In this document: one piece after another, positions 3,680 through 44,462 of the stretch
Position numbering within the stretch: position 1 is the stretch's first letter
Layout: each line of letters starts with the position of its first letter
Source of the DNA: an uncultured Anaerolineales bacterium
Lineage (GTDB): Bacteria; Chloroflexota; Anaerolineae; B4-G1
Assembly (NCBI GenBank): GCA_964385635.1
Contig: CAYLPU010000013.1
Location: 2,558-66,557, forward strand
DNA: 64,000 nt
Reading direction: 5' to 3'
Position numbers and translations under genes: made by a program
The notes under the pieces: model-generated
The model's database searches: none
The model's input: only the letters and a program-made list of their open reading frames with translations
Told to the model about the DNA's origin: nothing

Positions 3680-3731
3680 GGCTTCCTCCCTTATCCCATG
3701 TGGGCATCCATCGCACCTGTCTGCTCCCCGC

Positions 3732-4256: not shown

Positions 4257-4643
4257 ACCCTTCCTCCTCGTATCCTTGCTAGCACAAAAAAACAACCGCC
4301 AACCACTCGCCGTTGAATTCTACCCCATCCCGCCCGGCCACGCAAATGGAGCAGTCCGCCAGGTCTGGCCGCCATCGGCGGTATGTGAGAGGGTCAACTG
4401 TCCACCGCCTCAATGTGCCAGTCGCCAATGGAGGATTGAACAGTGGCTCGGCAATACGGGTGGCCGGCGCAGCACCCAGAATCAAGGCCAATGCTAACAA
4501 CAGGGTGAGCACACGAAAAGAGCGCCAGTCACGATTTGAGAGACCCGACAACTGGCGTTCGTGGTGCTGGCCCACTTGCAAGCCTGGGAGGTGGTGACGT
4601 TCCGCCGGCGAGTGTGTCGCGCACGTTTTCGGAACGGCTCTTA

Positions 4644-28015: not shown

Positions 28016-28048
28016 TCGTCATTCGTCATTCGTCATTCGTCATTGGTC
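28007..28048. repeat. heptanucleotide tandem repeat (ATTCGTC)x5 plus ATTGGTC
   Basis: Five perfect 7-nt units at 28007-28041 and one degenerate unit. On the coding (minus) strand this reads (GACGAAT)n. It contains both the maf stop (28033-28035) and the PBP start (28013-28015). Confidence 0.95.
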
Positions 28049-29127: not shown

Positions 29128-29156
29128 GTAGGGGCGAGTCTCAGACTCGCCCCTAC
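29128..29156. repeat. 29-nt perfect palindrome GTAGGGGCGAGTCTCAGACTCGCCCCTAC (copy 2)
   Basis: Identical to 2872-2900. Lies in the 75-nt gap between the kinase stop and the Hpt start. Confidence 0.8.
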
Positions 29157-29172: not shown

Positions 29173-32100
29173 TCACTGTCGTAGTGCCTCCAGGCGACGC
29201 AGTTGCGCCAGTATAGATTGCGGAGTGAGCCCGCTCTTGCGCATCAGCCCCTGAATGTGACCGTCGAGAAGTTCGCGTTCCTCTGCGCTCACGTCCTTGG
29301 CAGTTAGCACGATGACCGGGATGTCCACTGTTTCGGCGTCGGCCCGGAGTTTCTCCAGCACCTCAAAGCCGCTCATCCCCGGCATCAGCAAGTCCAGCAG
29401 GATCACGTCGGGGTGCTCACCGCGGGCTAAGGTCAGTCCCTGCTTGCCGTCGTATGCCGCGAGCAACGTGTAACTCTCAGCCGGTAGCATTTGCTGCAGC
29501 AACTTGATCACCCCGGGGTCGTCGTCCACAGCCAGGACGGTGACGTGCCGTGTGAGGGGGTCAGGCGCTGCCAGCCGGTCAAGCAGCCTGTGCAGGTCCT
29601 CCCGCCGTATCGGTTTGATCAAGTAATCCACCGCTCCCAGGCTGAACGCCAACTCACCGTCTTCCAGCGCCGAAATGATCAGCACCGGGATGTCCTTGGT
29701 CTGTGGGTCTGACTTGAGGGCACGTAGCACCTCCCAACCGTCTTGATCGGGGAGCATGATGTCAAGCGTGATGAAGGCGGGTCTCAACTCATGGGCCCGA
29801 TCCAGCACACCCACGCCGTTGTAGTGCGGAACGGGTGTGTAGCCCTCCTGACGCAGGTAGAAGGCCAGGAGATCGCTGAATTGATGATCATCCTCGACCA
29901 CCAGCACCGTCTTGTTGCCCGAAGGCGGCGCAGTTTCTCCAGCCGCATCCGGTTCTGCAGCCGGTGGGCCGGCGAGCGGAAGCAAGATTGAGAAGGTCGC
30001 CCCGTGCCCATACTCGCTTTCGACCCAGATGCGGCCTCCGTGCATCTCGATCAGCCGCTTGCTGATGGCCAACCCCAGCCCGGTGCCTGTCATCTCCCGC
30101 GCTGCCGAGCCATCTGCCTGGCGGAACTCCTCAAAGACGATCTCCTGATCCTCCGGCTTGATCCCGATGCCGGTGTCCGCTATGGAGAAGAGCATCGTGG
30201 CCGGGTCGGCCAGGCAGCAGGAGAGGGTGATGTGCCCCTCGACAGGGGTGAACTTATAACTGTTGCTGAGCAGGTTGAGCAACACCTGCTTGACCCGGAA
30301 CCGGTCGGCAGTCAGTGGCGGCAAATCATCGGCCTGTTCTATCGTCAGCACCTGCGACTTCTTTTGGATCATCGGCGCAACCGTCATCTGCACTTCCGCC
30401 AGCAGCCCCGTCACGTCAAAAGCCGTCTGCTCCAGTTCCATACGCCCGGCCTCGATCTTGGAGAGGTCGAGGATGTCGTTGATCAGGGACAGGAGATGGT
30501 GTCCGCTGGAGCGGATGTTTTCTAAGCATTCCTTTTGATCAGGGGTTACCTGGCCCACAAACCCATCAATCAGCACCTCGGAGAAGCCGATGACAGAGTT
30601 GAGCGGGGTGCGGAGTTCGTGGCTCATGTTGGCGAGGAACTGGCTCTTGAGCCGGTCTAGTTCCTGCAAGCGGACGTTGGCCTCCTCCAGCGCCTCCGCC
30701 CGCTGCTGCAACTCGATCCCGACCGCCTCCACCTCCTCGAACAACCGGGCCCGCTCCACGAGCACAGCCAGGTTACTGGCCAATGTGTTCAATAGCCTCT
30801 GGTCGTCGTCCGTGAAGGCGTTGGGTTGAGGGCTCTCGACGTTGAGGACGCCGATGACCGACCGGCCGATGCGCATGGGAACGCACAGTTCGGAGCGGAC
30901 GTCGGGGACCCCTTCGACGTAGCGGGGGTCCAGGCGCACGTCGGGCACCAGGGCAGGCTCGCCGTGCTGTGCCACCCAGCCGGTGATCCCCTCGCCCAGT
31001 TGCAGGCGCAGATTCTTGATCGCATCCGGTGGATAGCCAACACTGGCCTCCATGTGCAACAAACCGCTCTCTGGCTCCAGCAGCATGAGTGCGACGTGCG
31101 TGCTCTCTAACTGGGAGGCCAGGGCAACCGCTGCGGCCTGCAGGGTCTCCTCCAGGCGCACGCCAGAGGCGGCGGCCATCCCCACTTCGTGGAGTAACTG
31201 CAGTTCGCGCACTCGACGCTGGGTCTCCTCGAACAACCGGGCCTGTTCAATGAGCACAGCCAGGTTGCTGGCCAGCGTGCTCAGCAGCCGCTGGTCATCG
31301 TCCGTGAAGGTGTTGGGTTGAGGGCTCTCGACGTTGAGGACGCCGATAACTTGTGAGCCTGCGACCAGGGGGACGCATAGTTCGGAACGGATATCAGGGA
31401 TCTCTTCGTAATAGCGGGGGTCCAGCCGCACGTCGGGCACCAGGGCAGGCTCGCCGTGCTGTACCACCCAATCGGTGATTCCTTTTCCAGATGGAATGCG
31501 CAGACCATGCATTCCGTCTGGGAGATAGCCGATAGCAGCCTTCTGGTATAATACGCCGCTCTCTTGATCCAATAGCGCAATCCCCACATGGAGGTCTCCT
31601 AACTCGGCAGCCAGGGCCTTCACTGTGGCCTGCAGGGTCTCCTCCAGGCGCACGCCAGAGGCGGCGGCCGTCCCCACTTCGTGGAGTAACTGCAGTTCGC
31701 GCACCCGCTGGCGGGCCTGCTCGTACAGCCGACCGTTCTCCAGCGCCACGCCGATCTGCTGGCCGATGGCGGTCAGAAGCGCGTAGTCGGCCTCAGAAAC
31801 GGGGTGGGGCGCAGTGCCGAACAGGCAGAAGGTGCCCAGAGCGCGATCTTTATGGACAATCGGTGCACCCATGTAGGACTGCAACCCCGCCTTCAACAGC
31901 CTGCTCACTTCCACCGGTGCATCTTCGTGCAGGTCCCCCAGCCCCAGGATCTTCCCTTCCCGGTACACGAACTCGCACAACGAGCCACTCAAGCCATGGG
32001 TTTCCAGATGTTCGACGAAGGGCCGTGGCAAATCCGTGTAACTGAAAAGCACCAGATCGCCCGTGCATTCATCGGCCAGAGCGACCAGGCCGCCCGCGAA

Positions 32101-35100
32101 GCCCAGCGCCTGGACGGTGCGTGAGAGAGCCCGGTCCAGGATGTCCTGCAACTCGAGCGAAGTGGACAGGGCCTCGGCCACCGAGTTGAGCGCGGCCAGT
32201 TCCCGGTTGCGGCGTGAGATTTCCGCCTCCGCCCGCTTGCGCTCGGTCATATCGGTGGTGAAGCCAATCATGCGAACGGGATTTCCGGCCTCGTCCCAAA
32301 GTGCCTGTCCCCTGGCACGGAACCAACGATACTCGCCCGATTTGGTGCGTAGTCGCTGCTCCACGTCGTATAGCCCTCGATCCTTCAAGTGAGCTTCTAT
32401 TGCTGCCCCCGTGTGCTCTCTGTCGTCTGGATGCAGGTGTGATTCAAACGTGTCAAAGTCAACCTCGAGTTCATCATCAGCATATCCAAGCAACTCCTTG
32501 AAACGCGGAGACCAGTAGAGCGAGTTGTTTTGAATATCCCAGTCCCATAACCCGTCATTCGAACCGCGCACGGCCAGGGCAAACCGCTCTTCACTGACTC
32601 GCAATGCCTCCTCCGCCCGCTTGCGCTCGGTCAATTCTTGCTGCGCCTGCTCGTACAGCCGCGCGTTCTCTATGGCCACGGCGATCTGATCCGCCAGGGT
32701 CTCCATGGCTGTGAGGTCTGTCTCGTCGAAGGCGTTCAATTGGGTGTCCTGAACGTCGAGCACGCCGATGACCCGGCCGGCCAGTCTGAGCGGCACGCAC
32801 AACTCTGACCCTGCCGACGTCTCTTCCAGGAAGCCGGGGATGTAGCGCGGTTCCTGGCTCACGTCGTTGGACAGGAGCGGCTGGCCGGTCTCGGCTGTCC
32901 AACCGATCATCCCCACCCCCACCGCCTGGCGGTATTCTTCCGCCGCCACGTCCTTGAAGCCGCCAGACATAGCCACCCTCTCCATCTCGCTGGCCGCTTC
33001 ATCGAGCAGGAAGAGGGACACGGTATGGTACTCGAAGCCTCGCTGAATGGCAGCGACGATCTCCTGTAGAAGCCGGTCTGGGTCCAAGATCGAGGCGGCC
33101 TGCCGGGCCACCTGGTTGACCACGGTCAACTGGGTGACTCGTTTCTGTTCCGCCTCGTACATCCGTACGTTGCGGATGGCGATGGCGGCCTGAGTGGCGA
33201 GCAGACTCAGCAGTTCGGCGTCGGCTGGGGTGAAGGTACGCGGCGGGGCGGCGTGCACCTGCAAGACGCCCAAGAACTTGTCGCCCCAGCGGACCGGCAC
33301 GCCGACGATGGCCGCGAAGGGGTAGTCCTTATAGACAGCGGCCTGTCCCTCCCAATGCTGGTAATCGTCCACGATGAGCGGCTTGCCGGTCTCCCAGACC
33401 TTGCCGGAGAGACCCTCACCCCGGCGGATGACCGGATTGCCGGGCACCGGATTGGGGCTGATGGACGCAGTCCACTCCAGCACATCCCGCTCCGGCTGGT
33501 AGAGGTCAATGCCTCCCGTAGTACCCCCCAGCAGTTCGATGGCCCGCGAGACGATAGAGCGGAGAAGCGCATCCAGGTTCAACTGGGCGGTGAGTTCCAG
33601 TCCCACCTGCTGCAGCGCCTCCAACTGGGTCGTCCGTTGCCGGATATCCTCCTCTGTCCGCTTGCGCTCGGTGATGTCGCGGACAACACCCCGGAACCCA
33701 ACATGCTTGCCTGTGGGATCTCTTATCAGAGATACAGACGCCTCAACGAACCTCTTGGTCCCGTCTTTTCTGATGACCTCCCAATCGAATACTTCAGCCG
33801 GTTTCCTTGTTCGGTAGACCGTATTGAAGGTTTGATACACTTCACTGGCGTCCTCGTCGTCCATGTACCCTCGGTTATTCATGCCCATCAATTCATCTTT
33901 GGGATATCCAAGGAGCTTGCACAACGAATCGTTGAAAAACGTAAAGTTTCCGGCAATGTCAACTTCGAAATAGCCGTCTTCGATGTTCTCGAGAATGGTT
34001 CGATATTTCTCCTCGCTCTCCCGCAGCGCCTCCTCCGCCCGCTTGCGCGCGGTGATATCGCGGATAACACCCCGGAACCCAACAGGCTCGCCTGTGGGAT
34101 CTCTTATCAGAGACACAGACGCCTCAACGAACCTCTTGGTCCCGTCTTTTCTGATGACCTCCCAATCGAATACTTCAGCCGGTTTCCTTGTTCGGTAGAC
34201 CGTATTGAAGGTTTGATACACTTCACTGGCGTCCTCGTCGTCCATGTACCCTCGGTTATTCATGCCCATCAATTCATCTTTGGGATATCCAAGGAGCTTG
34301 CACAACGAATCGTTGAAAAACGTAAAGTTTCCGGCAATGTCAACTTCGAAATAGCCGTCTTCGATGTTCTCGAGAATGGTTCGATATTTCTCCTCGCTCT
34401 CCCGCAGCGCCTCCTCCGCCCGCTTGCGCTCGGTGATATCCTCACCGATGCTCATTGTGCCCACCGGATTCCCACTCTCGTCCAATAGCAGCGTGTTGTT
34501 CCAGGCGATCAGCCGTTCTTCGCCCTCCCTGGTTAGAATGGGGTTCTCGTAGTGGGGATGAATCCCAGCCTCCAGGATCTCGCTGAACACCGTGCCCACT
34601 GCAGGATGATCTCTTTCCGGGATGAAGGTCTGGAACCAATCCTTCCCCAGCACCTCGTCGAGCGTGTACCCCGCCAGTTCCAGGAGATGGGGGTTGGCAT
34701 AGGCTACGTTACCTTCCTGATCCAGGCCCACGGTGACCAGCCTTACGTTGTCCAGCAGAGTCTGGAAACGACGCTCGGCCTCTTGTAGTTTTGACTCTGC
34801 CCGCTTGCGCTCGGTGAGACTCCTCTCCAACTTCTGCATCAACGTACCCTTGCGCCAGGCGGCGGCCATCTGGTGGGCGAAGGCGGTGATCGCCGGTACG
34901 TCGTTTTCGGTCAGATCATCCGACTGCACCGAGAGCACACCGATGACCTTATCCTCCACGATGAGAGGGACGGCGATGGCTCTCGGGATTCTCAACATTC
35001 TAACCATTTGCCCGGCGAACCTTTTGACGGGCTCAGGTAATATCTGCCGTGTTGCCTCTTCCGCATTCTCCAGAAAGACGGTATTCCTCTCCCAGACCAC

Positions 35101-35775
35101 CTCTCTGTACAGGTCTACAGTTTCGACAGGCATGGAGAAGTCCTCTGTCTTAAGGCCCACCAGTTTCTCGGCCGCCTTGATCGCTCTGGCCGCGTAGCCC
35201 AAATACCTGGGGAACAGCCTGGTCTGGCTCTCGTCTGTGAGGAAAATCACACAGGATAGATCGAGCGTCTTGAACTCTTCGGCAACTGCAGCGAATATCT
35301 CTTCCGGTGTCAGGGCCTGCCCCATAGCCAGAGCCGCCTGGTTCAGCGCTTGCAGCAAGCGCTCCGCCCGCTGCTCCTCTTCAGCAAGCCGCTGCTGGCG
35401 GAGAGCCCGCTCAATCGCAGAGGGCAGCAATTTGAGGTACTCCCCCTCCACGTCCTTGACGATGTAATCGCTCGTGCCAAGTTTCATCGCCTCCACCGCG
35501 ATCTGCTCGTTACCGGTGCCGGTGACCATGATCGTGGGTGGCAGCGGACCTCGGGAAGCCAGAAAACGAAGCACCTCCAGCCCGTCATGGACGGGCATCG
35601 TCTGGTCCACGGCCACTACGTCGTAGGAGCCTGTCTCGTACATGGCCAGACTCTCTTCACCGTCGCGGGCGATGTCTACGACGTAGCCGGCTTGTTCCAG
35701 CCTCTTCTGGAAAAGACGTGCCGATCCTGGATCGTCTTCCATATAGAGGATGCGGATGGCTTTGGATTTAGACAT
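29173..35775 (-). CDS. 2200-aa hybrid sensor histidine kinase (REC-GAF-PAS x3-GAF x2-PAS-GAF x3-HisKA-HATPase-REC-REC)
   Basis: N-terminal REC (ILYMEDD..VAVDQTMP). Repeated RKRAEEAL S-helix linkers between PAS/GAF modules. H-box MSHELRTPLNSVIGFSE, then DTGIGI and GTGLGLAI. Two C-terminal REC domains (VLVVEDD..LDIMLPDQDG..DYLIKP and VLAVDDD..LDLLMPGMSG). GGGGAG SD. Confidence 0.9.
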   Translation of the reverse strand: MSKSKAIRILYMEDDPGSARLFQKRLEQAGYVVDIARDGEESLAMYETGSYDVVAVDQTMPVHDGLEVLRFLASRGPLPPTIMVTGTGNEQIAVEAMKLGTSDYIVKDVEGEYLKLLPSAIERALRQQRLAEEEQRAERLLQALNQAALAMGQALTPEEIFAAVAEEFKTLDLSCVIFLTDESQTRLFPRYLGYAARAIKAAEKLVGLKTEDFSMPVETVDLYREVVWERNTVFLENAEEATRQILPEPVKRFAGQMVRMLRIPRAIAVPLIVEDKVIGVLSVQSDDLTENDVPAITAFAHQMAAAWRKGTLMQKLERSLTERKRAESKLQEAERRFQTLLDNVRLVTVGLDQEGNVAYANPHLLELAGYTLDEVLGKDWFQTFIPERDHPAVGTVFSEILEAGIHPHYENPILTREGEERLIAWNNTLLLDESGNPVGTMSIGEDITERKRAEEALRESEEKYRTILENIEDGYFEVDIAGNFTFFNDSLCKLLGYPKDELMGMNNRGYMDDEDASEVYQTFNTVYRTRKPAEVFDWEVIRKDGTKRFVEASVSLIRDPTGEPVGFRGVIRDITARKRAEEALRESEEKYRTILENIEDGYFEVDIAGNFTFFNDSLCKLLGYPKDELMGMNNRGYMDDEDASEVYQTFNTVYRTRKPAEVFDWEVIRKDGTKRFVEASVSLIRDPTGKHVGFRGVVRDITERKRTEEDIRQRTTQLEALQQVGLELTAQLNLDALLRSIVSRAIELLGGTTGGIDLYQPERDVLEWTASISPNPVPGNPVIRRGEGLSGKVWETGKPLIVDDYQHWEGQAAVYKDYPFAAIVGVPVRWGDKFLGVLQVHAAPPRTFTPADAELLSLLATQAAIAIRNVRMYEAEQKRVTQLTVVNQVARQAASILDPDRLLQEIVAAIQRGFEYHTVSLFLLDEAASEMERVAMSGGFKDVAAEEYRQAVGVGMIGWTAETGQPLLSNDVSQEPRYIPGFLEETSAGSELCVPLRLAGRVIGVLDVQDTQLNAFDETDLTAMETLADQIAVAIENARLYEQAQQELTERKRAEEALRVSEERFALAVRGSNDGLWDWDIQNNSLYWSPRFKELLGYADDELEVDFDTFESHLHPDDREHTGAAIEAHLKDRGLYDVEQRLRTKSGEYRWFRARGQALWDEAGNPVRMIGFTTDMTERKRAEAEISRRNRELAALNSVAEALSTSLELQDILDRALSRTVQALGFAGGLVALADECTGDLVLFSYTDLPRPFVEHLETHGLSGSLCEFVYREGKILGLGDLHEDAPVEVSRLLKAGLQSYMGAPIVHKDRALGTFCLFGTAPHPVSEADYALLTAIGQQIGVALENGRLYEQARQRVRELQLLHEVGTAAASGVRLEETLQATVKALAAELGDLHVGIALLDQESGVLYQKAAIGYLPDGMHGLRIPSGKGITDWVVQHGEPALVPDVRLDPRYYEEIPDIRSELCVPLVAGSQVIGVLNVESPQPNTFTDDDQRLLSTLASNLAVLIEQARLFEETQRRVRELQLLHEVGMAAASGVRLEETLQAAAVALASQLESTHVALMLLEPESGLLHMEASVGYPPDAIKNLRLQLGEGITGWVAQHGEPALVPDVRLDPRYVEGVPDVRSELCVPMRIGRSVIGVLNVESPQPNAFTDDDQRLLNTLASNLAVLVERARLFEEVEAVGIELQQRAEALEEANVRLQELDRLKSQFLANMSHELRTPLNSVIGFSEVLIDGFVGQVTPDQKECLENIRSSGHHLLSLINDILDLSKIEAGRMELEQTAFDVTGLLAEVQMTVAPMIQKKSQVLTIEQADDLPPLTADRFRVKQVLLNLLSNSYKFTPVEGHITLSCCLADPATMLFSIADTGIGIKPEDQEIVFEEFRQADGSAAREMTGTGLGLAISKRLIEMHGGRIWVESEYGHGATFSILLPLAGPPAAEPDAAGETAPPSGNKTVLVVEDDHQFSDLLAFYLRQEGYTPVPHYNGVGVLDRAHELRPAFITLDIMLPDQDGWEVLRALKSDPQTKDIPVLIISALEDGELAFSLGAVDYLIKPIRREDLHRLLDRLAAPDPLTRHVTVLAVDDDPGVIKLLQQMLPAESYTLLAAYDGKQGLTLARGEHPDVILLDLLMPGMSGFEVLEKLRADAETVDIPVIVLTAKDVSAEERELLDGHIQGLMRKSGLTPQSILAQLRRLEALRQ
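30733..31716. repeat. tandem duplication of a GAF module inside the kinase gene (2 x 492 nt, boundaries approximate)
   Basis: The anchor TTGGGTTGAGGGCTCTCGACGTTGAGGACGCCGAT occurs at 30821 and 31313. The protein halves RVRELQLLHEVG(T/M)AAASGVRLEETLQA...LFEE are highly similar. Confidence 0.8.
33661..34422. repeat. near-identical tandem duplication of a PAS module inside the kinase gene (2 x 381 nt)
   Basis: Copy 1 is 33661-34041 and copy 2 is 34042-34422. By eye there are about 6 mismatches, all within the first ~90 nt, and the remaining ~290 nt are identical. Confidence 0.9.
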
Positions 35776-35858
35776 GACATTTACTCCCCGGCCGGTATTT
35801 GCTACCGGAAGTTTCTATCAATCTGTGTCTCCGTCGGGCGAAATCTTCTCCTCCTCCG

Positions 35859-37058
35859 TTGGGCGAGGTCTCCGACCCTTGTTGGGCGAGGTCTCCGACC
35901 GAGCCCCACGGCAGCGGTCAGGAGACCTTGCCGAACAGTTCCTACCACGGCAGCGGTCAGGAGACCTTGCCGAACAGTTTCTCCCACGGCGGCGGTCGGG
36001 AGACCTTGCCGAACCCCCGACTTGTTGGGCGAAGGTCTCTGACCGAGCCCTCTTCTACCATTCCACTGGCGTTAGAATGACCTCGGACTCGCCTCCCTCC
36101 AACCAATACGCAGCAGACGAGAAACGCCAATGGCGCGCTTCTCGCACCAGTCCCTTTCGGCATGGGTTGTCGTGAATGTAGCCGGACTTCTGTCGCCAGA
36201 AAGCCCGAGTGTAAATCGCTTCAGGATGCGTGCCGGCCTGCCAGAAGCGATGTTGGCGGTCCTTCCCGGCCGCATTCCGTAACGTACTGGCAAAACACGC
36301 CGGCATTTGAGAGACGCAGTGGTCGGTAAGCTGCCGGCCCGTATACTTACGCAGGTCTGCCAGCGTCTGTCGTAAGCGGTCGGTGTCAAAGTCCTCATCG
36401 AACAGGATGGCGTGAAGATGAGTGGGCATAATCACATAGGTATTGATCCGCAGATGCTTACGTTTATGGCAGAAATTGAGGCTGTCGGTGACAATGCAAC
36501 AAGGTTCCTCAGCGATGAAAACAGGCAACCACTCGACGACACTGAAGGTGACGAAGTAGAGAGCATATTCTTGAACAATTCGGTAGCGTGCCATTTGTCC
36601 TCCACGGCGGCGGTCAGGAGACCTTGCCGAACCCCGACTTGTTGGGCGAGGGTCTCTGACCGAGCCCCACGGCGGCGGTCAGGAGACCTTGCCGAACCCC
36701 GACTTGTTGGGCGAGGTCTCTGACCGAGCTCCACGGCGGCGGTCAGGAGACCTTGCCGAACCCCCGACTTGTTGGGCGAGGGTCTCTGACCGAGCTCCAC
36801 GGCGGCGGTCAGGAGACCTTGCCGAACCCCCGACTTGTTGGGCGAGGGTCTCTGACCGAGCTCCACGGCGGCGGTCAGGAGACCTTGCCGAACCCCCGAG
36901 TTGTTGGGCGAGGTCTCCGACCGAGCCCCACGGCGGCGGTCAGGAGACCTTGCCGAACCCCGACTTGTTGGGCGAGGTCTCTGACCGAGCTCCACGGCGG
37001 CGGTCAGGAGACCTTGCCGAACCCCCGAGTTGTTGGGCGAGGTCTCCGACCGAGCCCT
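35859..37058 (-). mobile_element. REP-hairpin array with embedded RAYT-type transposase gene
   Basis: 7 full 64-66-nt units at 36595-37058 and 3 degenerate or half units at 35859-36048, all in one orientation, flanking ORF 36055-36594. Each unit contains a 17-bp hairpin GGCGAGGTCTC-TGACCG / CGGTCAGGAGACCTTGCC. Confidence 0.75.
36055..36594 (-). CDS. REP-associated tyrosine transposase (IS200/IS605 TnpA-like Y1 HUH enzyme)
   Basis: 179 aa with the HUH motif in VIMPTHLHAIL and the catalytic Tyr context SGYIHDNPCRKGLV. Flanked on both sides by the hairpin repeats. Confidence 0.8.
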   Translation of the reverse strand: MARYRIVQEYALYFVTFSVVEWLPVFIAEEPCCIVTDSLNFCHKRKHLRINTYVIMPTHLHAILFDEDFDTDRLRQTLADLRKYTGRQLTDHCVSQMPACFASTLRNAAGKDRQHRFWQAGTHPEAIYTRAFWRQKSGYIHDNPCRKGLVREARHWRFSSAAYWLEGGESEVILTPVEW

Positions 37059-37060
37059 CA

Positions 37061-37444
37061 TCATCTCTCCTCTAGCGCGTCCAGGTACTGCCTCACCTGG
37101 CCCGGAAAAGTGCGGGTGTCAATCGGTTTAGTGATATAGCCATCGCAGCCGGCCGCCAGCGCTCGCTCGCGCTCTTCCGCCATGGCGTGTGCGGTGAGCG
37201 CCACAATAGGGATGTCCGCCGTCTCCGGCTGCGACTTTAACCTCTGCGCGGCATCGTACCCGCTTACTTTGGGCAGTTGCAAATCCATCAGAATGAAATC
37301 CGGCTGCTCGCGTGTGGCAACCTCGATCGCCTCCTCGCCGTCCGCAGCAACCAACAGACGATAGCCGTGGGGCTGCAGGACGGTCTCCACCAATTTGCGG
37401 CTGAGCAGACTATCCTCGACAATCAGGATGGTTTCATTCGCCAT
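37061..37444 (-). CDS. single-domain response regulator (CheY-like REC)
   Basis: ILIVEDS, FILMDLQLPKVSG, VALTAH, GYITKP. Start at the ATG 37444 (GAAGGTGG 7 nt upstream) rather than 37465. Confidence 0.85.
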   Translation of the reverse strand: MANETILIVEDSLLSRKLVETVLQPHGYRLLVAADGEEAIEVATREQPDFILMDLQLPKVSGYDAAQRLKSQPETADIPIVALTAHAMAEERERALAAGCDGYITKPIDTRTFPGQVRQYLDALEER

Positions 37445-37733
37445 AGCCAGCCACCTTCGCCTCAATGTCTCCCCTGGTGGTGAGCATGATCACCGGGATG
37501 TGAGCGGTGGCCTTCTCTTGCCGCAGCGCCCGGCAGACCTGGTAGCCGCTCAAACCAGGCATCACCACGTCGAGGACAATCGCATCGGGCTGCCAGTTCG
37601 TAACCACCCTCGACGCCTCCTCGCCATCGTTGGCCGCGTTGACCTGGTAGCCACCTGTACGCAATGCATCACCAACGATGCGCGTCTGCAGCGCGCTGTC
37701 GTCCACGACAAGGACTTTGGCCGCTTCGGTCAT
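37434..37733 (-). CDS. C-terminally truncated receiver-domain protein
   Basis: VLVVDDS, IVLDVVMPGLSG, IMLTT are present. The ORF stops at AKVAGYGE, before the beta5 Lys (KP) motif. Only 99 aa, and overlaps the next REC gene by 11 nt. Confidence 0.6.
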   Translation of the reverse strand: MTEAAKVLVVDDSALQTRIVGDALRTGGYQVNAANDGEEASRVVTNWQPDAIVLDVVMPGLSGYQVCRALRQEKATAHIPVIMLTTRGDIEAKVAGYGE

Positions 37734-37776
37734 TGTTTGCCCCTCACGCTATTCAGTCTCAGTTCGAGCAGTGTTC

Positions 37777-37995
37777 TCAGTTCCGCGGTCGAGACGACGC
37801 TGTCAGTGCGGAATCCACAGGCATCTTGTAGGTCTCCAGAAAGGACAGGAAATCGGACAGTAAGATGCGGTGGTGACCGCCTGGTGTGGTGTAAGCCTTG
37901 AGTTTGTCTTTTTTGATCCAGTTGACGATGGTTGCCTGGGAGACGTGACAATACCTGGCAGCCTGTCCAGTGGTCAGGAGTTTGATCTCAGACAT
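37777..37995 (-). CDS. HTH_17 / excisionase-family (MerR-like) DNA-binding protein
   Basis: 72 aa with LTTGQAARYCHVSQATIVNWIKKDKLKAYTTPGGHHRI. GAGGAGG SD. Confidence 0.8.
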   Translation of the reverse strand: MSEIKLLTTGQAARYCHVSQATIVNWIKKDKLKAYTTPGGHHRILLSDFLSFLETYKMPVDSALTASSRPRN

Positions 37996-38082
37996 CTATT
38001 GTTACCTCCTCAGCCAGATCGCTATTATGCAGGTGCACGAGGGGTTTGTGATGAACTTCACGATTGTTCTACTCTTCACTAT

Positions 38083-38111
38083 ATTATAAGATTTTTTGAA
38101 ATTGCGGTCAA
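38083..38111 (-). promoter_or_regulatory. sigma70-like promoter of the HTH-REC-REC-kinase operon
   Basis: The minus strand reads TTGACC (38111-38106), 17-nt spacer, TATAAT (38088-38083). Located in an AT-rich divergent region. Confidence 0.6.
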
Positions 38112-38237
38112 TGGGATAAAGATACTCAGTAGTTTATGGTAGTGGGCTGGTGATGGGCATCACCATTCAGCCGCTCCATCAAACCTGGCGCACTGTCCCG
38201 ACCTGATGTATAATCGAACGTTCTACAGGAGAGCAAC

Positions 38238-40280
38238 ATGCCCAGGTTCCAACTCGTCTCCGAGTTTCAGCCTACCGGCGACCAGCCGGAGGCCATCGCG
38301 CAACTGGTCGAGGGCATCAAGAAGGGGTACAAACACCAGACGTTGCTGGGAGCGACAGGCACAGGAAAGACCTACGTCGTGTCGAGAGTCATCGAACAGG
38401 TGCAGAAGTCTACGCTCGTCATTGTTCACAACAAGACCCTCGCTGCTCAACTCTACGCCGAGTTCCACGAGTTCTTTCCCCACAATGCTGTCGAGTACTT
38501 CGTGTCGTACTACGACTATTACCAACCGGAGGCCTACCTGCCCAGGTATGACCTGTACATTGAGAAGGACGCCGGCATCAACGAGGAGATTGACCGGTTG
38601 CGCCTGGCCGCCACGACCTCCCTTTTCTCTCGCCGCGATTGCATAATCGTCGCCTCCGTCTCCTGCATCTACGCCATCGGCGATCCCCAGGAGTGGGGGC
38701 GGGTCGTGGTCAAACTGGCGCGGGGAGAGCACCACCGCCGCGACGGGCTCCTTCGCCACCTGGTCAGCATCTATTACGAGCGGAACGACTTCCAGTTGAA
38801 GCGCGGAGCCTTCCGCGTGCGGGGCGACACGCTGGAAGTGGTGCCGGCCTACGGTGAGATCGCCTACCGCGTCGGCTTCTGGGGGGATGAGATTGAGCGC
38901 ATCACAGAGGTTGACCCCCTCACCGGTGAAGTGCTGGCGGAATTGGACGAGGTGCAGATCTTTCCTGCCAGGCACTTCATCACTCCGGAGGAGAAGCGGG
39001 AACAGGCACTGGCCGACATTGAGGCCGAACTGGAGGCGCGGTTGGCCGAACTGAAGGCGGAGGGGAAACTTCTGGAGGCCCAGCGGTTGGAGCAGCGTAC
39101 CCGGTACGATATCGAGATGATCCGCGAGATTGGCTATTGCCCCGGCATTGAGAACTACTCGCGCCACCTGCAGCAACGGCCACCCGGATCGCCCCCGTGG
39201 ACGCTGATGGACTACTTCCCGGCCGACTACCTGCTCGTCGCGGACGAGTCGCACATGACGATCCCGCAGGTACGGGGCATGTACCACGGCGACCGCAGCC
39301 GCAAGGGGGTGCTGGTCGAGTACGGCTTCCGCCTCCCCTCGGCGCTGGACAACCGGCCCCTCGACTTCGGGGAGTTCGAAGCCCGCGTCAACCAGATCTT
39401 CTACACCTCCGCCACCCCTGGCCCCTACGAACTGGAGAGAAGCCAGCAGGTGGTGCAGCAGATCATCCGCCCCACCGGCATCGTGGACCCCCAGATCATC
39501 GTCAAGCCGGTGAAGGGGCAGGTGGACGATTTAGTAGGGCAGATCAACGAGCGGGTGGCGCGGGGCGAGCGCGTGCTGGTCACCACGCTGACTAAGCGTA
39601 TGGCCGAGGACCTGGCCGGCTATTTGCGTGAACTGGACATCAAAGTGCATTACTTGCACAGCGAGGTCCAGACCCTCGAGCGGGTTGAGATCCTGCGGGA
39701 CCTGCGGCTGGGGGTGTACGACGTGGTGGTGGGGATCAACTTGCTGCGGGAGGGGCTGGACCTGCCGGAGGTGAGTCTGGTGGCGATCCTGGACGCCGAC
39801 AAGGCGGGCTTCTTACGGTCAGACACCGCCCTCATCCAGACCACCGGCCGGGCCGCACGGCACGTCAACGGCACCGCCATCATGTACGCCGACCGGATCA
39901 CGGACTCGATGAAACGGGCCATCGAGGAGACGGATCGGCGGCGGAAGATTCAGGTGGCGTACAACGAAGAACATAGTATCGTGCCTGCCACCATTGTCAA
40001 GGAAGTTCGCGACCTGACCGCCCGGGTGCGCAGACAGACTGTCCCCGACCGCGAACCAGGGCTGGCCCTGGCGCAGTTGCCCCGGGATGAACTGGCCCGC
40101 CTGATCCGGGAGTTGGAAAAGCAGATGAAGGCGGCCGCGCGAGACCTGGAGTTCGAGAAGGCGGCCCTCCTCCGGGACCAGGTCTTCGAACTGCGGGCGG
40201 TGCTGGTCGAGAAGGAGGAGGCGGAGATGCCAGCCTGGGAGCGAGAGCGGCGCAGGGCTCGGCTGGCAATCGAGGAGTAG
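38238..40280 (+). CDS. uvrB: excinuclease ABC subunit B
   Basis: [25 protein letters not shown] (beta-hairpin), VADESH, and the C-terminal UVR motif [15 protein letters not shown]. Confidence 0.95.
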
Positions 40281-40297
40281 GCTGGAGGAGGAACGAT

Positions 40298-41638
40298 ATG
40301 GCGAAGATAACACGCGTGGTCAAGCGAACGGGTGCCGTAGTACCTTTCAACAAGGAACGCATCACCAACGCCATCTACCGGGCGGCGGTGGCCGTGGGCG
40401 GGCGCGATCGCGCCATCGCGGAGGGGTTGTCAGACCAGGCCGTGGCTATGCTGGAGGAGACCACGCTGCCTGACCATATCCCCACCATTGAGGAGATCCA
40501 GGACATCGTTGAGAAGGTGCTGATTGAGAACGGTCACGCCAAGACGTCCAAGGCGTATATCCTCTACCGCGACGAACGAGCCCGCCGCCGGCGTGAGCGG
40601 GCCAGACGCTCGGCCCATCCCTCCGAGAACATCCCCTGGCACAAGATGTGGGAGGTTCTGGACTGGGCCGTGGACCACGACCTTCACACGGTCGAACGCT
40701 TGAACGCGCGCATCGCGCGCGGAGAGTTCCCTCAGATTGTGCGGGAGACCGACCGGGCCTATACTGAGGACATCACGACCGCTTCCGAGATCATCAGGGA
40801 GCGTCGGGACCAGGTGAAGATCGTCGTCGTCGCCGGGCCTTCCTCCTCCGGCAAGACGACCACGACCGTCAAACTCAGCCACCTGTTGAAGAAGATGGGG
40901 CTCAACCTGGTTCCGCTCACCGTTGACAATTACTTCTTCGACCTGGAACTCCACCCCAGGGACGAGTTCGGCGATTATGACTTCGAGACGCCCCAGGCCC
41001 TCGATCTGGAACTTATCGACGAGCACCTGGTGCGCTTGATCGCCGGGGAGGAGGTACGGGTTCCCTTCTACGAATTCAAGACCGGCAGGCGACACGACGA
41101 CCATACCCCGATGCAGATCGGGCCGGATGACGTTATCCTCATTGACAGCCTGCATGGCCTGTACGCTAGTATGACGCGCTCCATTGACGACGAACTGAAG
41201 TTCAAACTGTACATTGAGACCTTGCTGCAGATGAAAAGTTCCGATGGAAGGTTCGTGCGCTGGACGGACCTGCGGTTGATGCGCCGCATGGTGCGCGATG
41301 CCGTTCACCGTGCCTACGATCCCCAGCAGACGTTGGAACACTGGCACTATGTTCGCAAGAGCGAGATGCGCAACATCATCCCCTACATCAACACGACCGA
41401 CTACATCGTCAACAGCGGCCTGCCGTATGAACTGCCCATCATGAGGGCCAGGCTGTTCGGCCGCTTCGAGAAGTGGGCCGGACAGTACAAGGACGATCCG
41501 CTGCGGGAGGACGCGCGTGTGCGCGCCGGGCGCGTGTACCGCCTCCTGAAGTCTATCACCCCGGTCGAGGACGACTCAGCCATACCGCCCGACTCGCTCC
41601 TGCGGGAGTTCATCGGCGGTAGTTGCTACGAATATTGA
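40298..41638 (+). CDS. ATP-cone domain fused to a uridine kinase / PRK-like P-loop kinase
   Basis: N-terminal ATP-cone (ITRVVKRTGAVVPFNKERITNAIYRA) and P-loop VVVAGPSSSGKTTT. GGAGGAGG SD. Confidence 0.75.
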   Translation: MAKITRVVKRTGAVVPFNKERITNAIYRAAVAVGGRDRAIAEGLSDQAVAMLEETTLPDHIPTIEEIQDIVEKVLIENGHAKTSKAYILYRDERARRRRERARRSAHPSENIPWHKMWEVLDWAVDHDLHTVERLNARIARGEFPQIVRETDRAYTEDITTASEIIRERRDQVKIVVVAGPSSSGKTTTTVKLSHLLKKMGLNLVPLTVDNYFFDLELHPRDEFGDYDFETPQALDLELIDEHLVRLIAGEEVRVPFYEFKTGRRHDDHTPMQIGPDDVILIDSLHGLYASMTRSIDDELKFKLYIETLLQMKSSDGRFVRWTDLRLMRRMVRDAVHRAYDPQQTLEHWHYVRKSEMRNIIPYINTTDYIVNSGLPYELPIMRARLFGRFEKWAGQYKDDPLREDARVRAGRVYRLLKSITPVEDDSAIPPDSLLREFIGGSCYEY

Positions 41639-41673
41639 GACACTACGTACCGAATATGACTACATATTTGGTG

Positions 41674-41702
41674 TTGACAAACGTCCGATAAAAGAGTATA
41701 TT
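41674..41702 (+). promoter_or_regulatory. sigma70-like promoter of the Phd/RelE module
   Basis: TTGACA (41674-41679), 17-nt spacer, TATATT (41697-41702). Confidence 0.6.
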
Positions 41703-41733
41703 AGTGCCAGTTATACTCGCGATGAGGTGGATA

Positions 41734-41988
41734 ATGGCTGTGACAATCGTACCAATCAGTGATCTCCGGCGAAATACCGCTCGTCTGCTCCAGCACGCGG
41801 GTGAGAGCGATGAGCCTGTTTACATCACTCAACACGGACGTCCCAAGGCCGTTCTCCTGGGCTACCAGGTGTATGAGCATCTGATGGCTCAGTTGGAAGA
41901 TCTGGCGGACCTGGCAAGTCTTCGCGAGCGCGCCGATGAGTCGGCGCGTCCGTTCACTGAGTTCCTGCAGGAGATCAGCGAGGAATAG
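41734..41988 (+). CDS. Phd/YefM-family antitoxin
   Basis: MAVTIVPISDLRRNTARLLQHAGESDEPVYITQHGRPKAVLL. The ATG at 41734 follows GAGGTGG. The ORF-track start at 41704 lies upstream of the predicted transcription start. Confidence 0.85.
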   Translation: MAVTIVPISDLRRNTARLLQHAGESDEPVYITQHGRPKAVLLGYQVYEHLMAQLEDLADLASLRERADESARPFTEFLQEISEE

Positions 41989-41990
41989 CG

Positions 41991-42254
41991 TTGGCGTACG
42001 AGGTCCTGATCAAGGCGTCGGCGGAAAGGGACATCCGTCGCCTCCCTCACGATGTGCGTGAGCGGGTGGCATCTGCTATCCTGGCATTGCAAGAGGACCC
42101 CCGTCCGCCGGGTGTTCGCAAACTCAAGGGCAGGGGTGAGGAGGGTTGGCGCATCCGAGTGGGCAGCTATCGCGTGGTGTACAAGATTGACGACAGCCTG
42201 CGCCAGGTGACGATCTACTGGGTGCGACACCGTCGTGATGTCTACCGATTTTAG
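41991..42254 (+). CDS. RelE/ParE-family toxin
   Basis: TTG start 2 nt after the antitoxin stop. 87 aa with WRIRVGSYRVVYKIDD..VTIYWVRHRRDVY. Confidence 0.85.
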   Translation: MAYEVLIKASAERDIRRLPHDVRERVASAILALQEDPRPPGVRKLKGRGEEGWRIRVGSYRVVYKIDDSLRQVTIYWVRHRRDVYRF

Positions 42255-42378
42255 CGCAACGTTGGTGTACGCGGAGATGTGCTCGATGAAAACGGCAAAG
42301 CAGGTTGTAGGATGATGGGGCTATGATCCACGGCGCCGGCTCCCGTCCGGAGCGGCCTTACATCGTCTCCACATTGTG

Positions 42379-42411
42379 CCGCCACCGGGCAAGCCGGTGG
42401 CGGTTGTTGTT
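42379..42411 (+). terminator. intrinsic terminator after the RelE-like gene
   Basis: CCGCCACCGG-GCAAG-CCGGTGGCGG (10-bp perfect stem) followed by TTGTTGTT. Confidence 0.65.
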
Positions 42412-42563
42412 AAGGTTCCAGAGATTGCAGTACGCAGATGCTGACCCCAGATTCCCCAACTGAGGAGAACAGAATCGCACAGTTGGAAAACGACCTAAAG
42501 CAAAAAGATAGGTTAGTTGCTGATCTCACGAGGCAAGTCGCTGAACTTCAAATCTGGCGTGGC

Positions 42564-42592
42564 TTGACGGCCCTCCCAGAGCATGATACAAT
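42564..42592 (+). promoter_or_regulatory. sigma70-like promoter of the antitoxin/PIN module
   Basis: TTGACG (42564-42569), 17-nt spacer, TACAAT (42587-42592). It lies inside the long ORF-track version of the antitoxin, which argues for the short start. Confidence 0.6.
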
Positions 42593-42635
42593 GTGGCCAC
42601 AACGTGCGGCTACATTTCTGAAAGGTGGAGCAGCG

Positions 42636-42881
42636 ATGGCAGAGATCGGTGTTCGTGAACTGAAGAACCGCACCAGCGAGATCGTCCGGGCGGTGCGGGA
42701 GGAGCGCGTCGAATACGTCGTCACCTACCGGGGGCAGCCGGTGGCCCGCCTCGTTCCTGTCGTTGACGCAGATAGTGACGAACGGGCTTGGCATGAACTC
42801 GAACGGCTGAGCCAGGAAATCAGCGCACAGTGGCAGTCAGACAAGTCGGCGGTCGAACTCCTGAGCGAGATGCGGCGGTGA
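42636..42881 (+). CDS. Phd/YefM-type antitoxin partner of the PIN toxin
   Basis: ATG 42636 after AAAGGTGGAG. MAEIGVRELKNRTSEIVRAVREERVEYVVTYRGQPVARLVP. Confidence 0.8.
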   Translation: MAEIGVRELKNRTSEIVRAVREERVEYVVTYRGQPVARLVPVVDADSDERAWHELERLSQEISAQWQSDKSAVELLSEMRR

Positions 42882-42885
42882 ACCG

Positions 42886-43320
42886 ATGCTCCTCCTCGTA
42901 ATTGACGCCAGCGTATACGTAAGCCGTCTGCACCAGCACGAGACACATCACCTCGAAAGTGTGCGCCTGCTTGATGCTGTGGCAGCCCACAGGGTGACTG
43001 TCCTATGCCCGGAGATTCTGGTGCCAGAGGTCGCGGCTGCCATCGCACGGGGTCTGGATAGCACGGAGTTTGCTTATCGCGCAGCCGCTCACTTGCGGAA
43101 ACTGCCGGGCCACCGGTTCGTCGCCGTGGATCGGGTGCTGAGTGGCCTCGCGGGCCGGCTGGCTGCTGAGTGTCGCCTGCGCGGTTGCGACGCGATCTAC
43201 GCAGCGCTGGCGCAGCGGGAAGGGGCTCGTCTGATCACGTGGGATAAGCAGCAGCGAGACAGGGCAGCGGATGTAGTCGAGACATTGACGCCGGCAGAGG
43301 CATTGGCTGTGCTGAAGTAG
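42886..43320 (+). CDS. vapC: PIN-domain toxin (VapC-like ribonuclease)
   Basis: LLLVIDASVYV, CPEILVPEV, RGCDAIYAALA, LITWD give the acidic PIN quartet. Starts 4 nt after the antitoxin stop. Confidence 0.8.
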   Translation: MLLLVIDASVYVSRLHQHETHHLESVRLLDAVAAHRVTVLCPEILVPEVAAAIARGLDSTEFAYRAAAHLRKLPGHRFVAVDRVLSGLAGRLAAECRLRGCDAIYAALAQREGARLITWDKQQRDRAADVVETLTPAEALAVLK

Positions 43321-43340
43321 GCACTCCGATTGGAGAAGAA

Positions 43341-44462
43341 GTGATGATGTGGGCAGAACAAGAGCAAAAGCGGGTTGATACCTGCGACGTGGTCGTCGTC
43401 GGGGCGGGGCTGGTGGGCGCGGTAGTAGCGTCGCGCCTGGCTCGCGAGGGGTTCGATACGGCGGTATTGGAGGCCCAGAGCGTGGCGGGCGGCGCGACCG
43501 GGCGCAGCGCCGGGATGGTGCTCACCGGACTGGCCGGCCATTACAACTGGGCCATCTCTGCTTATGGCCGTCAGGAGGCGCAGGAGGTCTGGGCGCTCAC
43601 CGTCGAAGGACGAGAGTGGCTGGTCGAGACCGCTGAGCGGTTGGAGGTACCCGTCGAACACACCGGTAGCCTCGCGCTGGCTGTCGAGGAGACCGAGGTG
43701 GATGCGCTGAGGGAATCGGCGGAACTGCTGCGCGAGGACGGCTTTGACGCCTGGTTCGGCCCCAGCGATCCCCTGGGCCGGGACTTCCGCGCTGCCCTGC
43801 GCCAGCCCGACGATGTGACGGTGGACGCCGCCGCGCTGACCCGGGCATTGCTGACCGCTGGCGACGTGACCGTCCACGAAGGGACCGAGGTCTACCATCT
43901 GGAGCCGGAGAGAGACGACGTGCGCGTCTGGGCGCGAGGCCGCACCGTGCTCTGCGGCGGTGTTGTGCTGGCGATTAACGGTTATGCCTCGCTGCTTGAT
44001 CACTACTTCACCGATAAAGTCGCTCCCACCCGCAGCCTCGTTCTTGCCACCGATCCGTTGGACGAGGTGGTGCTGGAACAGCCCTGCTGTGCCGACTACG
44101 GGTATGAATACTGCCGCCAGTTGGCCGACCGCCGGTTGTTGTTGGGCGGTTGGCGGCGCGCGCGCCCCCAGACGCAAGAGGCCGAAATGGGCGACGTGGT
44201 GCGGGATGGGCTGCTTCGCTTCGCATTGCGCCACTTTCCCGAGATAGAGAGGCATGGCGTCAGCCGCTGGTCTGGGGTAATGGGCTTCACCCCCGATGGG
44301 CTGCCGCTGGTGGGCCAGTTGCCTGGCCTGCCGCAGGTGTACTTCGCGGTGGGGTTCGGGGGCCGGGGACTGGCCTGGGCCTTCGTCGTCGCCCAGCGGT
44401 TGGTGGAGTTGATGCTGCACGATACCTCCCCAGGAGTCCTCTCGGCCGCGCGGCTGGGCTGA
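43341..44462 (+). CDS. FAD-dependent oxidoreductase (DAO family)
   Basis: CDVVVVGAGLVGAVVASRLAREG dinucleotide-binding fold. 373 aa with C-terminal GFGGRGL. Confidence 0.85.
   Translation: MMMWAEQEQKRVDTCDVVVVGAGLVGAVVASRLAREGFDTAVLEAQSVAGGATGRSAGMVLTGLAGHYNWAISAYGRQEAQEVWALTVEGREWLVETAERLEVPVEHTGSLALAVEETEVDALRESAELLREDGFDAWFGPSDPLGRDFRAALRQPDDVTVDAAALTRALLTAGDVTVHEGTEVYHLEPERDDVRVWARGRTVLCGGVVLAINGYASLLDHYFTDKVAPTRSLVLATDPLDEVVLEQPCCADYGYEYCRQLADRRLLLGGWRRARPQTQEAEMGDVVRDGLLRFALRHFPEIERHGVSRWSGVMGFTPDGLPLVGQLPGLPQVYFAVGFGGRGLAWAFVVAQRLVELMLHDTSPGVLSAARLG

Follow-up and report, generated by a model that had tools for sequence, protein, structure and literature searches.

The locus analysed here lies in a 64-kb window, by which we mean the whole stretch of DNA analysed, from contig CAYLPU010000013.1 of an uncultured Anaerolineales bacterium. 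It is the junction between a response-regulator receiver (REC) gene and a sensor kinase gene, in which a gene for a repetitive extragenic palindromic (REP)-associated tyrosine transposase (RAYT) stands between clusters of REP sequences. All genes at the junction are on the minus strand, and the list of open reading frames (ORFs) together with Pfam matches gave the order, along that strand, HTH_17, REC, REC, REP cluster, RAYT, REP cluster and a 2200-aa hybrid kinase. The original prediction, made from the letters of the sequence, had described a RAYT wrapped in repeats, co-oriented with its neighbours, between the REC genes and the hybrid kinase, and this layout was confirmed. We consider it very probable that the locus is a REPtron, i.e., a single RAYT (TnpA-REP, HUH/Y1 class 2) bracketed by cognate REP clusters. 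Its parts are as follows (L numbers denote loci compared with the window; REPIN, REP doublet forming a hairpin; BIME, bacterial interspersed mosaic element).

36602-37057, no strand assigned: upstream cluster in the RAYT sense, seven tandem REPIN/BIME-like units of 64-66 nt, making 14 REPs in alternating orientation
36602-36632, minus strand: the REP-B nearest the RAYT start, GTTC-GGCAAGGTCTCCTGACCGCCGCCG, consisting of the foot GTTC and a palindrome with a bulge; L127 and L129 also have this element before the ATG
36599-36603, minus strand: Shine-Dalgarno-like GGAGG, seen in the letters themselves, which adjoins the last REP and stands 4 nt before the ATG of the RAYT
36055-36594, minus strand: intact RAYT/TnpA-REP gene, 179 aa, with HUH H59-L-H61, W118-Q119, Y139 in YIHDNP and a C-terminal RFSS
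36024-36050, plus strand: the REP-A after the RAYT stop, GTTG-GGCGAAGGTCTCTGACCGAGCCC, 4 nt past the stop codon (36055-36057)
35859-36050, no strand assigned: downstream cluster in the order A A B B B A, with single-arm tandem runs of 23-nt and 39-nt period

The ORF at 36055-36594 on the minus strand encodes 179 aa and contains PTHLHAIL and YIHDNP, the motifs on which the transposase had been predicted. Profile and fold comparisons bore the prediction out. The NCBIfam model NF047646 ('REP-associated tyrosine transposase', REP_Tyr_transpos, equivalog) scored 92.5 bits against a cutoff of 80, with 143 of its 146 profile positions covered, and it matched 23 of 23 members of the RAYT family. The AlphaFold model of the protein (predicted local distance difference test, pLDDT, 81.5; predicted template modelling score, pTM, 0.81) had as its best fold match in the PDB 4er8_A, the E. 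coli TnpA-REP with a REP hairpin (E 2.5e-07, template modelling scores 0.59/0.63), and the IS200/IS605 transposases, including IS608 and ISDra2, came behind it at ranks 2-30. The HUH site is T58-H59-L60-H61, in which H59 and H61 are invariant among the 23 homologues (alignment A1). In the same alignment Y139, H141, N143 and P144 of the Y motif, Y139-I-H-D-N143-P144, are invariant, as is W118, and Q119 is nearly so. It is known that Y-x-x-x-N-P is the signature of class 2 (TnpA-REP), whereas IS200 transposases have Y-x-x-x-Q (PMC6006769). The ratio of nonsynonymous to synonymous substitutions (dN/dS) against orthologues was 0.10-0.19, up to a dS of 0.72, which argues that the RAYT is maintained by selection. 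From the sequence and the predicted fold, the ORF is identified as an intact RAYT/TnpA-REP (HUH Y1, class 2) of the domesticated type.

About 1,000 homologues of this RAYT were found, typically of 179-182 aa, and the named ones came from Anaerolineae, Chloroflexota and Gemmataceae metagenome-assembled genomes (MAGs). The nearest named relatives are from Anaerolineae/Anaerolineales MAGs, not from Proteobacteria, and to this extent the proposal of a REP-RAYT system in a different lineage stands. It is not new as such, since REPs of Chloroflexi and Planctomycetes were described in 2013 (PMC3733652) and the JGI annotation of many homologues already reads 'REP element-mobilizing transposase RayT'.

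The repeats were placed by two kinds of search. Tandem Repeats Finder reported a period of 65 with 7.0 copies and 95% matches at 36600-37055, in agreement with the seven units of 64-66 nt first described upstream of the gene, and a period of 39 with 2.8 copies at 35906-36014. Arm B (CGGTCRGGAGACCTTGCC) has 10 copies in the window, and the query GGTCAGGAGACCTTGCC, with up to three mismatches, placed all of them within 35916-37018; the chance expectation was 0.33 copies, and as many as 10 were obtained in 0 of 100 shuffles. Copies of arm A (GGGCGAGG(G)TCTCYGACCG) also number 10, all inside the locus. All 20 arms lie between 35859 and 37057, and a relaxed core search of the 64 kb gave no further copies. 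Read on the plus strand, the arms are ordered A A B B B A, RAYT (minus strand), (B A)x7. The downstream part had been taken for three degenerate or half units; it consists instead of a tandem pair of A arms, a tandem run of three B arms and a single A arm, with one full A:B hairpin at 35883-35932. The seven-unit array comprises three sequence subtypes and a two-unit higher-order duplication of 131 nt at 98% identity, and its indels fall in runs of G and C. The linkers between arms are themselves repeated, as GAACCCC(C)GA[CG]TTGTTG and GAGC[CT]CCACGG. The repeats end 3 nt from the REC stop codon (37061-37063), a correction of the 2 nt given before, and start 83 nt upstream of the kinase ATG (35775), which refines the earlier value of about 85 nt.

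When the fold was calculated for DNA, the A-13 nt-B hairpin gave -20.1 kcal/mol with 17 pairs and one bulge (z -4.2), and 0 of 200 shuffles were as good; the predicted 17-bp hairpin with one bulge and a 13-nt loop was thus reproduced. The alternative B-17 nt-A pairing within the array is equally stable (-19.7 kcal/mol). A single arm also folds by itself, with 4+4-bp stems around an internal loop, at -6.3 (A) or -7.0 (B) kcal/mol. On its own strand an arm reads, 5' to 3', GTT[GC]-GGC[GA]A(G)GGTCTC(C)YGACCG..., which is a foot of 4 nt and, after it, a short imperfect palindrome with an outer GGGC/GCCC or GGC/GCC, an inner GGTC/GACC and an internal loop of 2-3 nt. The basic REP is therefore about 26 nt long, the foot GTTG (A) or GTTC (B) and then GGC-(bulge)-GGTC-loop-GACC-(bulge)-GCC. 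One of these two feet is present on 20 of 20 arms, and GTTG is found in the planctomycete versions. An A and a B together, inverted and with the feet on the outside, form a doublet of about 60 nt.

Single-arm tandem runs occur in the window (AA and BBB) and in L123/L124 (aaa and BBBB), and B-only singletons are present in other genomes. The B-like arm of Gemmataceae and Isosphaeraceae forms a perfect palindrome of 11 bp, GTGGCAAGGTC-GGGA-GACCTTGCCAC followed by AAC (-13.9 kcal/mol, z -7.3). Among RAYT homologues the inner GGTC-N3-4-GACC is constant and the outer stem covaries, as GGCAA/TTGCC, GGCAC/GTGCC and TTGGC/GCCAA. Because of the single-arm runs, the B-only singletons, the perfect planctomycete palindrome and the covarying outer stem, the arm is the elementary unit, and therefore the 65-nt unit is two inverted REPs with feet outward, for which the terms REPIN and BIME are used (PMC3116915, PMC3333891). 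The original prediction of a head-to-tail array rather than inverted REPIN doublets was not upheld, as each unit is itself an inverted doublet of two small REPs.

The association of the repeats with the gene is close on both sides. In the RAYT sense, REP-B ends 12 nt before the ATG with GGAGG next, and the stretch GCCGCCGTGGAGGACAAATG at this Shine-Dalgarno-like site is the same in L127 and L129. Since the REP-A after the stop codon is inverted relative to the REP-B before the ATG, the RAYT is bracketed by inverted REPs, and a bracketed RAYT is the REPtron arrangement of E. coli and others (PMC3333891, PMC6006769). A REP with the GGTC-N3-4-GACC core was found within about 25 nt past the stop codon in 8 of 9 homologue loci, namely L127 and L129 (RAYT 99% identical to that of the window), L123 and L124 (90%), L030 (82%), L126 (70%), and L233a and L230 (L233 and L230, 62-63%). 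In the ninth, L232 (60%), the nearest GGTC-N3-GACC palindrome starts about 36 nt past the stop. REP clusters accompany the RAYT in every homologue locus, whichever genes adjoin, and homologues at 60-90% identity in Chloroflexota and Planctomycetota share the same REP core with covarying outer stems.

Comparison of related loci indicated how the element has been inherited. Housekeeping DNA of L001, L003, L127 and L129 is about 97-100% identical to the window (97% for L127), so that these contigs are regarded as conspecific, and the order HTH-REC-REC-RAYT is kept in all four. The kinase follows the RAYT where the contig extends far enough (L001, L003 and L129, and also L002 and L004-L006). The number of units upstream of the RAYT is one in L127, three in L001 and L003, four to five in L002, L005 and L006, and seven in the window; L004 starts inside the REP cluster, and the other contigs with an identical RAYT have three to five. 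Two contigs carry a RAYT at 90% identity. L124 keeps the order HTH/REC-RAYT-kinase without a separate 127-aa REC gene, and L123 begins in the cluster just upstream of the RAYT and has the orthologous kinase next. The position is thus shared with the conspecific contigs and the genome with the 90% RAYT, and the dN/dS of the RAYT is 0.16 at a dS of 0.29. In L124, about 545 nt of REP arms (four B and two A, repeated) directly follow an HTH-REC fusion gene at 3256-4444 (GCA_964412395.1), and this layout suggests a rearrangement or deletion associated with the cluster.

Related loci lacking the RAYT were also found. L132, in the same uvrB-LysM/YkuD-HTH/REC context and with a REC 82% identical, has its REC stop codon 6 nt from the ATG of a GAF/PAS kinase. 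L130 and L131 have the REC and then directly a sensor kinase, the kinases being loosely related to that of the window. L132 is suggestive of an empty site, though not in the strict sense. At 82% identity or less the RAYT lies between unrelated genes (L030, L126, L230, L232 and L233), and from these neighbourhoods of the distant homologues we infer that it has moved or been transferred over longer timescales.

L129 has discordant identities to the window, 99.1% for the RAYT, 91% for the REC gene and 97.6% for the uvrB-side housekeeping flank. The difference of 99% against 91% is not taken as evidence of RAYT transfer, because with housekeeping flanks at 97.6% the discordance is that of a locally divergent REC region. 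This region, compared over window positions 36867-37786, is about 86% identical; it is possibly recombined and adjoins the REP cluster. As separate observations on these contigs, L001 (99.9% identical to window 36861-43500) carries two toxin-antitoxin pairs at 2582-4168, PIN/PhdYeFM and ParE/PhdYeFM, just past uvrB and a PF00485 phosphoribulokinase/uridine kinase-family gene with an ATP-cone domain, and L129 is without the ParE/Phd pair found in L001.

Copies dispersed elsewhere were sought in genomes and metagenomes. A 17-mer scan of species-representative genomes (596 Gb) was expected to give about 140 chance singletons, and lone matches in Actinomycetes, Proteobacteria and others were therefore disregarded and only genomes matched on multiple contigs were used. 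Among the matches listed, these were at least 10 Anaerolineae/Anaerolineales MAGs, together with several from Gemmataceae and Isosphaeraceae; the listed matches did not include the source genome. The Anaerolineae matches are the same doublet at unrelated sites, cGTTGGGCGArGGTCTCyGACCGAGCCC-N6-12-CGGCGGCGGTCAGGAGACCTTGCCGAAC. One of these Anaerolineae MAGs, CAYPOY, which carries the 90% RAYT, has at least two more REP sites on other contigs, a full doublet (L040) and a B-only singleton (L118). When JGI metagenomes were scanned with a 24-mer, 97 stretches were returned, among which were 34 clear doublets, a large number of copies with B alone and several clusters in tandem; the JGI samples in which the exact RAYT occurs contributed none of the 97.

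In Logan contigs, loose ends run from REP arms into other sequences, and the sequence beyond the doublet of L210, one of the 97 metagenome stretches, is exactly a loose end of the window's array. Depths in four salt-lake runs were about 5-6, 18, 5-7 and 6 for L210 and 5.7, 18.9, 6.6 and 5.0 for the window. Because of the shared depth profile and the loose-end match, L210 is probably from the same population as the window. On this contig (Ga0208279_1000743) the doublet, at 7571-7640, lies in frame inside a 1193-aa ORF and encodes ...VGRRSPDRAPSGGGQETLPNN...; the ORF has N6_Mtase and Eco57I methylase matches, and the doublet is between the two matched stretches.

The genes adjoining the REPtron, all in the same orientation, are the following.

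37777-37995, minus strand: HTH_17 (MerR/excisionase-type) DNA-binding gene, PF12728 E 6.6e-13, which heads the cluster
37434-37733, minus strand: second receiver-domain gene, 99 aa, PF00072 E 1e-20, its last 11 nt being shared with the start of the next gene
37061-37444, minus strand: response-regulator receiver gene (DivK/CheY-like), 127 aa, PF00072 E 9.9e-28, with the REP cluster directly downstream
29173-35775, minus strand: hybrid sensor kinase, 2200 aa, with an N-terminal REC, GAF/PAS modules, HisKA/HATPase and C-terminal RECs, downstream of the REPtron

The kinase entry is based on the ORF translation, with domains taken from the L123 orthologue, and on an identity of 43% over the N-terminal part. 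Orthologues of the 127-aa REC are found at 75-98% identity across Anaerolineae. The uvrB gene is divergent and upstream of the HTH_17 gene. The sole promoter-like match is sigma-70-like (11 of 12 positions) at 38111-38083, upstream of HTH_17, and a pattern scan of the minus strand within 35776-37060 gave no promoter or terminator match, with the reservation that Chloroflexota promoters may differ. Because the genes are co-oriented and no such match falls inside the REPtron, the RAYT is probably co-transcribed with its neighbours. If so, the kinase message would have to pass 20 hairpin-forming REPs, and the hairpins in the mRNA are predicted to be strong enough to affect its read-through, stability or translation. 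No RNA run was found to contain the locus.

Other repeats were noted in this part of the window. The kinase gene contains a 381-nt tandem duplication at 33648-34440 (2.1 copies, 97%), which doubles a PAS module, and an older 492-nt duplication at 30733-31704 (2.0 copies, 80%) in the GAF region. Simple repeats stand at 27836-28050 near the boundary of two ORFs, (GTTG)x11.5 at 27836-27881, a 14-nt unit x2.9 at 27948-27988 and (ATTCGTC)x6.3 at 28007-28050. A perfect 29-nt palindrome, GTAGGGGCGAGTCTCAGACTCGCCCCTAC, has two copies in the window (2872-2900 and 29128-29156), both between convergent ORFs and the second about 17 nt beyond the kinase stop. It represents a further REP-like family, this one with the canonical double foot GTAG...CTAC, and its stem resembles arm A (GGGCGAG..TCTC). 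It was present in none of 229 loci compared, and its cognate transposase, if any, is outside the window.

Several results weigh against the REPtron explanation and have to be set beside it. Pfam PF01797 (Y1_Tnp) gave no match to the RAYT at E<=0.01, nor to any of the 23 family members at E<=10, so that the profile check proposed at the outset was passed with NF047646 and not with PF01797. This failure weighs little, because PF01797 derives from IS200/IS605 and its alignment with TnpA-REP is only partial (PMC6006769), and it does not refute the assignment since the dedicated NCBIfam model and the fold agree. The sequence similarity to 4ER8 is marginal (E 0.002 with phmmer against PDB sequences). 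None of the 20 arms has the canonical GT[AG]G foot, on which the E. coli TnpA-REP depends. The unit had been expected elsewhere in the genome. The other 62.7 kb of the window hold no copy of REP-A or REP-B, which puts the density in this region below about 1 per 20 kb, and the copy number in the source genome may be low; the doublet on L210, probably of the same population, agrees with the expectation in part. The unit counts that differ between contigs were taken from assemblies of short reads, in which tandem repeats are collapsed. The comparison for an empty REC-kinase site gave two genes 6 nt apart without the RAYT in L132, but the kinase there is only 27% identical to that of the window and without the N-terminal REC, so that the site is only approximately orthologous. 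Finally, the unrelated neighbourhoods of the distant homologues fit less well with a RAYT that is strictly domesticated and immobile.

By analogy with the E. coli enzyme (PMC3333891, PMC3479197, PMC8266576), the RAYT would bind a folded single-stranded REP together with its foot, cut nearby by means of Tyr139 and the HUH-bound metal, and then rejoin the strands. The doublet, as single-stranded DNA or RNA, would fold into the 17-bp hairpin. In trans, the enzyme may carry doublets to other places; at its own locus, in combination with slippage or unequal recombination, it may build tandem clusters. Such local action would explain the seven-unit array, the single-arm runs and the differing unit numbers of conspecific contigs. 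In E. coli, tandem BIME-2 clusters are documented, as are a copy number that varies among strains and the joining of tandem copies through strand transfer by TnpA-REP (PMC3333891). The picture drawn from the sequences is one in which the REPtron would have inserted into a tight junction between the receiver gene and the sensor kinase gene and would since have been inherited vertically in this lineage, with relocation or transfer on longer timescales.

Another explanation is that the element is an autonomous insertion sequence (IS) of IS200/IS605 type, in which the ORF is a true transposase, the flanking hairpins are its left and right ends, and the jump into the operon was recent. Inverted hairpin-forming sequences do bracket the gene, the fold also matches the IS608 and ISDra2 transposases, the homologues in L030, L126, L230, L232 and L233 have different neighbourhoods, and the GC content of the RAYT is 54% against 61% for the window. 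However, the Y motif is that of TnpA-REP and not of IS200, the top profile and the top fold are both TnpA-REP, and the position is shared by the conspecific contigs and the 90%-RAYT genome under the purifying dN/dS given above. Furthermore, the 64-kb window contains one copy of the RAYT, the ORF list has no tnpB-like ORF adjoining it, and on both flanks there are clusters with multiple copies of a repeat which is also found alone at many sites that lack the RAYT gene. We consider an autonomous IS quite improbable.

It could also be proposed that the arrays arose by slippage or unequal homologous recombination alone and are kept as structural elements of RNA or DNA (an mRNA stabiliser, an attenuator, a supercoiling element or a gyrase/IHF site), with no current part for the RAYT. 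The 131-nt higher-order duplication and the indels in G and C runs are both typical of slippage or recombination, and REPs have such structural roles in E. coli (reviewed in PMC3333891). The mRNA-strand hairpins are still stable, at -30.8 kcal/mol per unit (z -2.2), but the antisense (plus) strand folds better as RNA, at -38.8 kcal/mol (z -4.8), and thus the wobble pairs are not tuned to the transcript. The better antisense fold and the clusters that follow the RAYT in every context, regardless of neighbours, speak against a structure tuned to this transcript, and the minus strand of the REPtron has no terminator-like site. As an explanation of the whole locus, slippage or recombination alone is very unlikely, although as a process it complements rather than excludes the REPtron explanation.

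The last alternative, a CRISPR-like (clustered regularly interspaced short palindromic repeats) or other spacer-bearing array or an assembly artefact, has in its favour the regular 64-66-nt spacing and the unit numbers that differ among short-read contigs of the same locus, but is scarcely credible, as there are no unique spacers, both linkers are repeated, no Rfam family matches the locus, the unit variants are reproduced exactly in independent Logan contigs from four runs, and the repeats have 2-9 times the depth of the flanks (Logan depths being contig means, from which no copy number can be derived).

Returning to the REPtron explanation, a wider claim can be formulated on top of it, which we put forward as a doubtful proposal only. 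The RAYT clade and its GTTG-footed, GGTC-N3-4-GACC REPs would be one ancient lineage, missed by PF01797-based surveys and hence absent from RAYT classifications, which persisted or was repeatedly exchanged across Chloroflexota and Planctomycetota with its core almost unchanged. In this species it would have been co-opted as a structured spacer of variable copy number that sets the amount of kinase made against that of the upstream response regulators, with expression of the RAYT under the same phosphorelay promoter.

The REPtron reading has several implications of its own. It extends the architecture of a RAYT with BIME-like tandem clusters to uncultured Anaerolineae, with one REP core and foot common to planctomycete relatives of the same RAYT clade. 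The perfect and bulged palindromes with covarying outer stems are a natural series for the study of hairpin recognition. Because PF01797 misses the whole clade, surveys based on it undercount RAYTs outside Proteobacteria; the survey of Quentin et al. 2018 (PMC6006769) recruited its proteins with this model. The position inside an operon offers a simple test of the effect of a REP cluster on the expression of a downstream gene.

The closest known system is the E. coli REPtron, in which tnpA-REP/yafM stands between BIME-2 clusters (Ton-Hoang et al. 2012, PMC3333891; structure 4ER8, PMC3479197). In both, a single HUH/Y1 gene has variable numbers of REP pairs on both borders, and two REP subtypes alternate in orientation with short conserved linkers, as the y and z2 REPs do in E. 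coli BIME-2. The REP pair is reiterated in tandem with a unit number that differs between close relatives, and the REPs are imperfect bulged palindromes with a 5' tetranucleotide foot. The fold is also the same. Unlike in E. coli, the foot is GTTG/GTTC instead of GTAG, and the paired REPs are only 13 nt apart, so that a pair is one long 17-bp hairpin. The enzyme, of 179 aa, has about 19% identity to the E. coli enzyme over the structural alignment and is undetected by PF01797, the host is Anaerolineae-like, and the element sits inside a co-oriented gene cluster. The Pseudomonas REPIN-RAYT systems (Bertels & Rainey 2011, PMC3116915; RAYT groups, PMC5581495) likewise have as the mobile unit an inverted REP doublet that forms a hairpin, REPs that flank the RAYT, and a RAYT under purifying selection whose position is unchanged among close relatives. 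Here, the spacer is much shorter, and the REP core is common to two phyla, whereas the Pseudomonas REPINs are lineage-specific.

In the classification of Quentin et al. 2018 (PMC6006769), the Y-x-x-x-N-P signature places the enzyme with TnpA-Y1 class 2. By sequence, the motif set THLH, WQ, YIHDNP, C-terminal SS and 179 aa is nearest to subclass 2.6 (Bertels group 5) in their table, which lists WQ, YIH-x-NP, a C-terminal SS and a median length of 179 aa. The residue that precedes HUH is T here and not N or D, and subclass 2.6 is mostly from Bacteroidetes with 'atypical' structures. The doublet, footed at each end, resembles the 'double foot' REPs of subclass 2.4. The GTAG-tagged REP superfamily (Di Nocera et al. 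2013, PMC3733652), with REPs in Chloroflexi and Planctomycetes, shares with this element the short stem-loops with a 4-nt unpaired tag, the dimers and tandem clusters of dimers, some copies inside genes, and the association with a tyrosine transposase (REPtrons). It differs in the tag, which is GTTG/GTTC here; the GTAG...CTAC palindrome of the window is a separate family. The locus thus matches the defining features of REPtrons and of REPIN/BIME elements except for the canonical GT[AG]G foot. It is an element of a known kind and a clear new example of it, with modest novelty in its foot, in a REP core common to two phyla, in the Pfam blind spot and in its position inside an operon.

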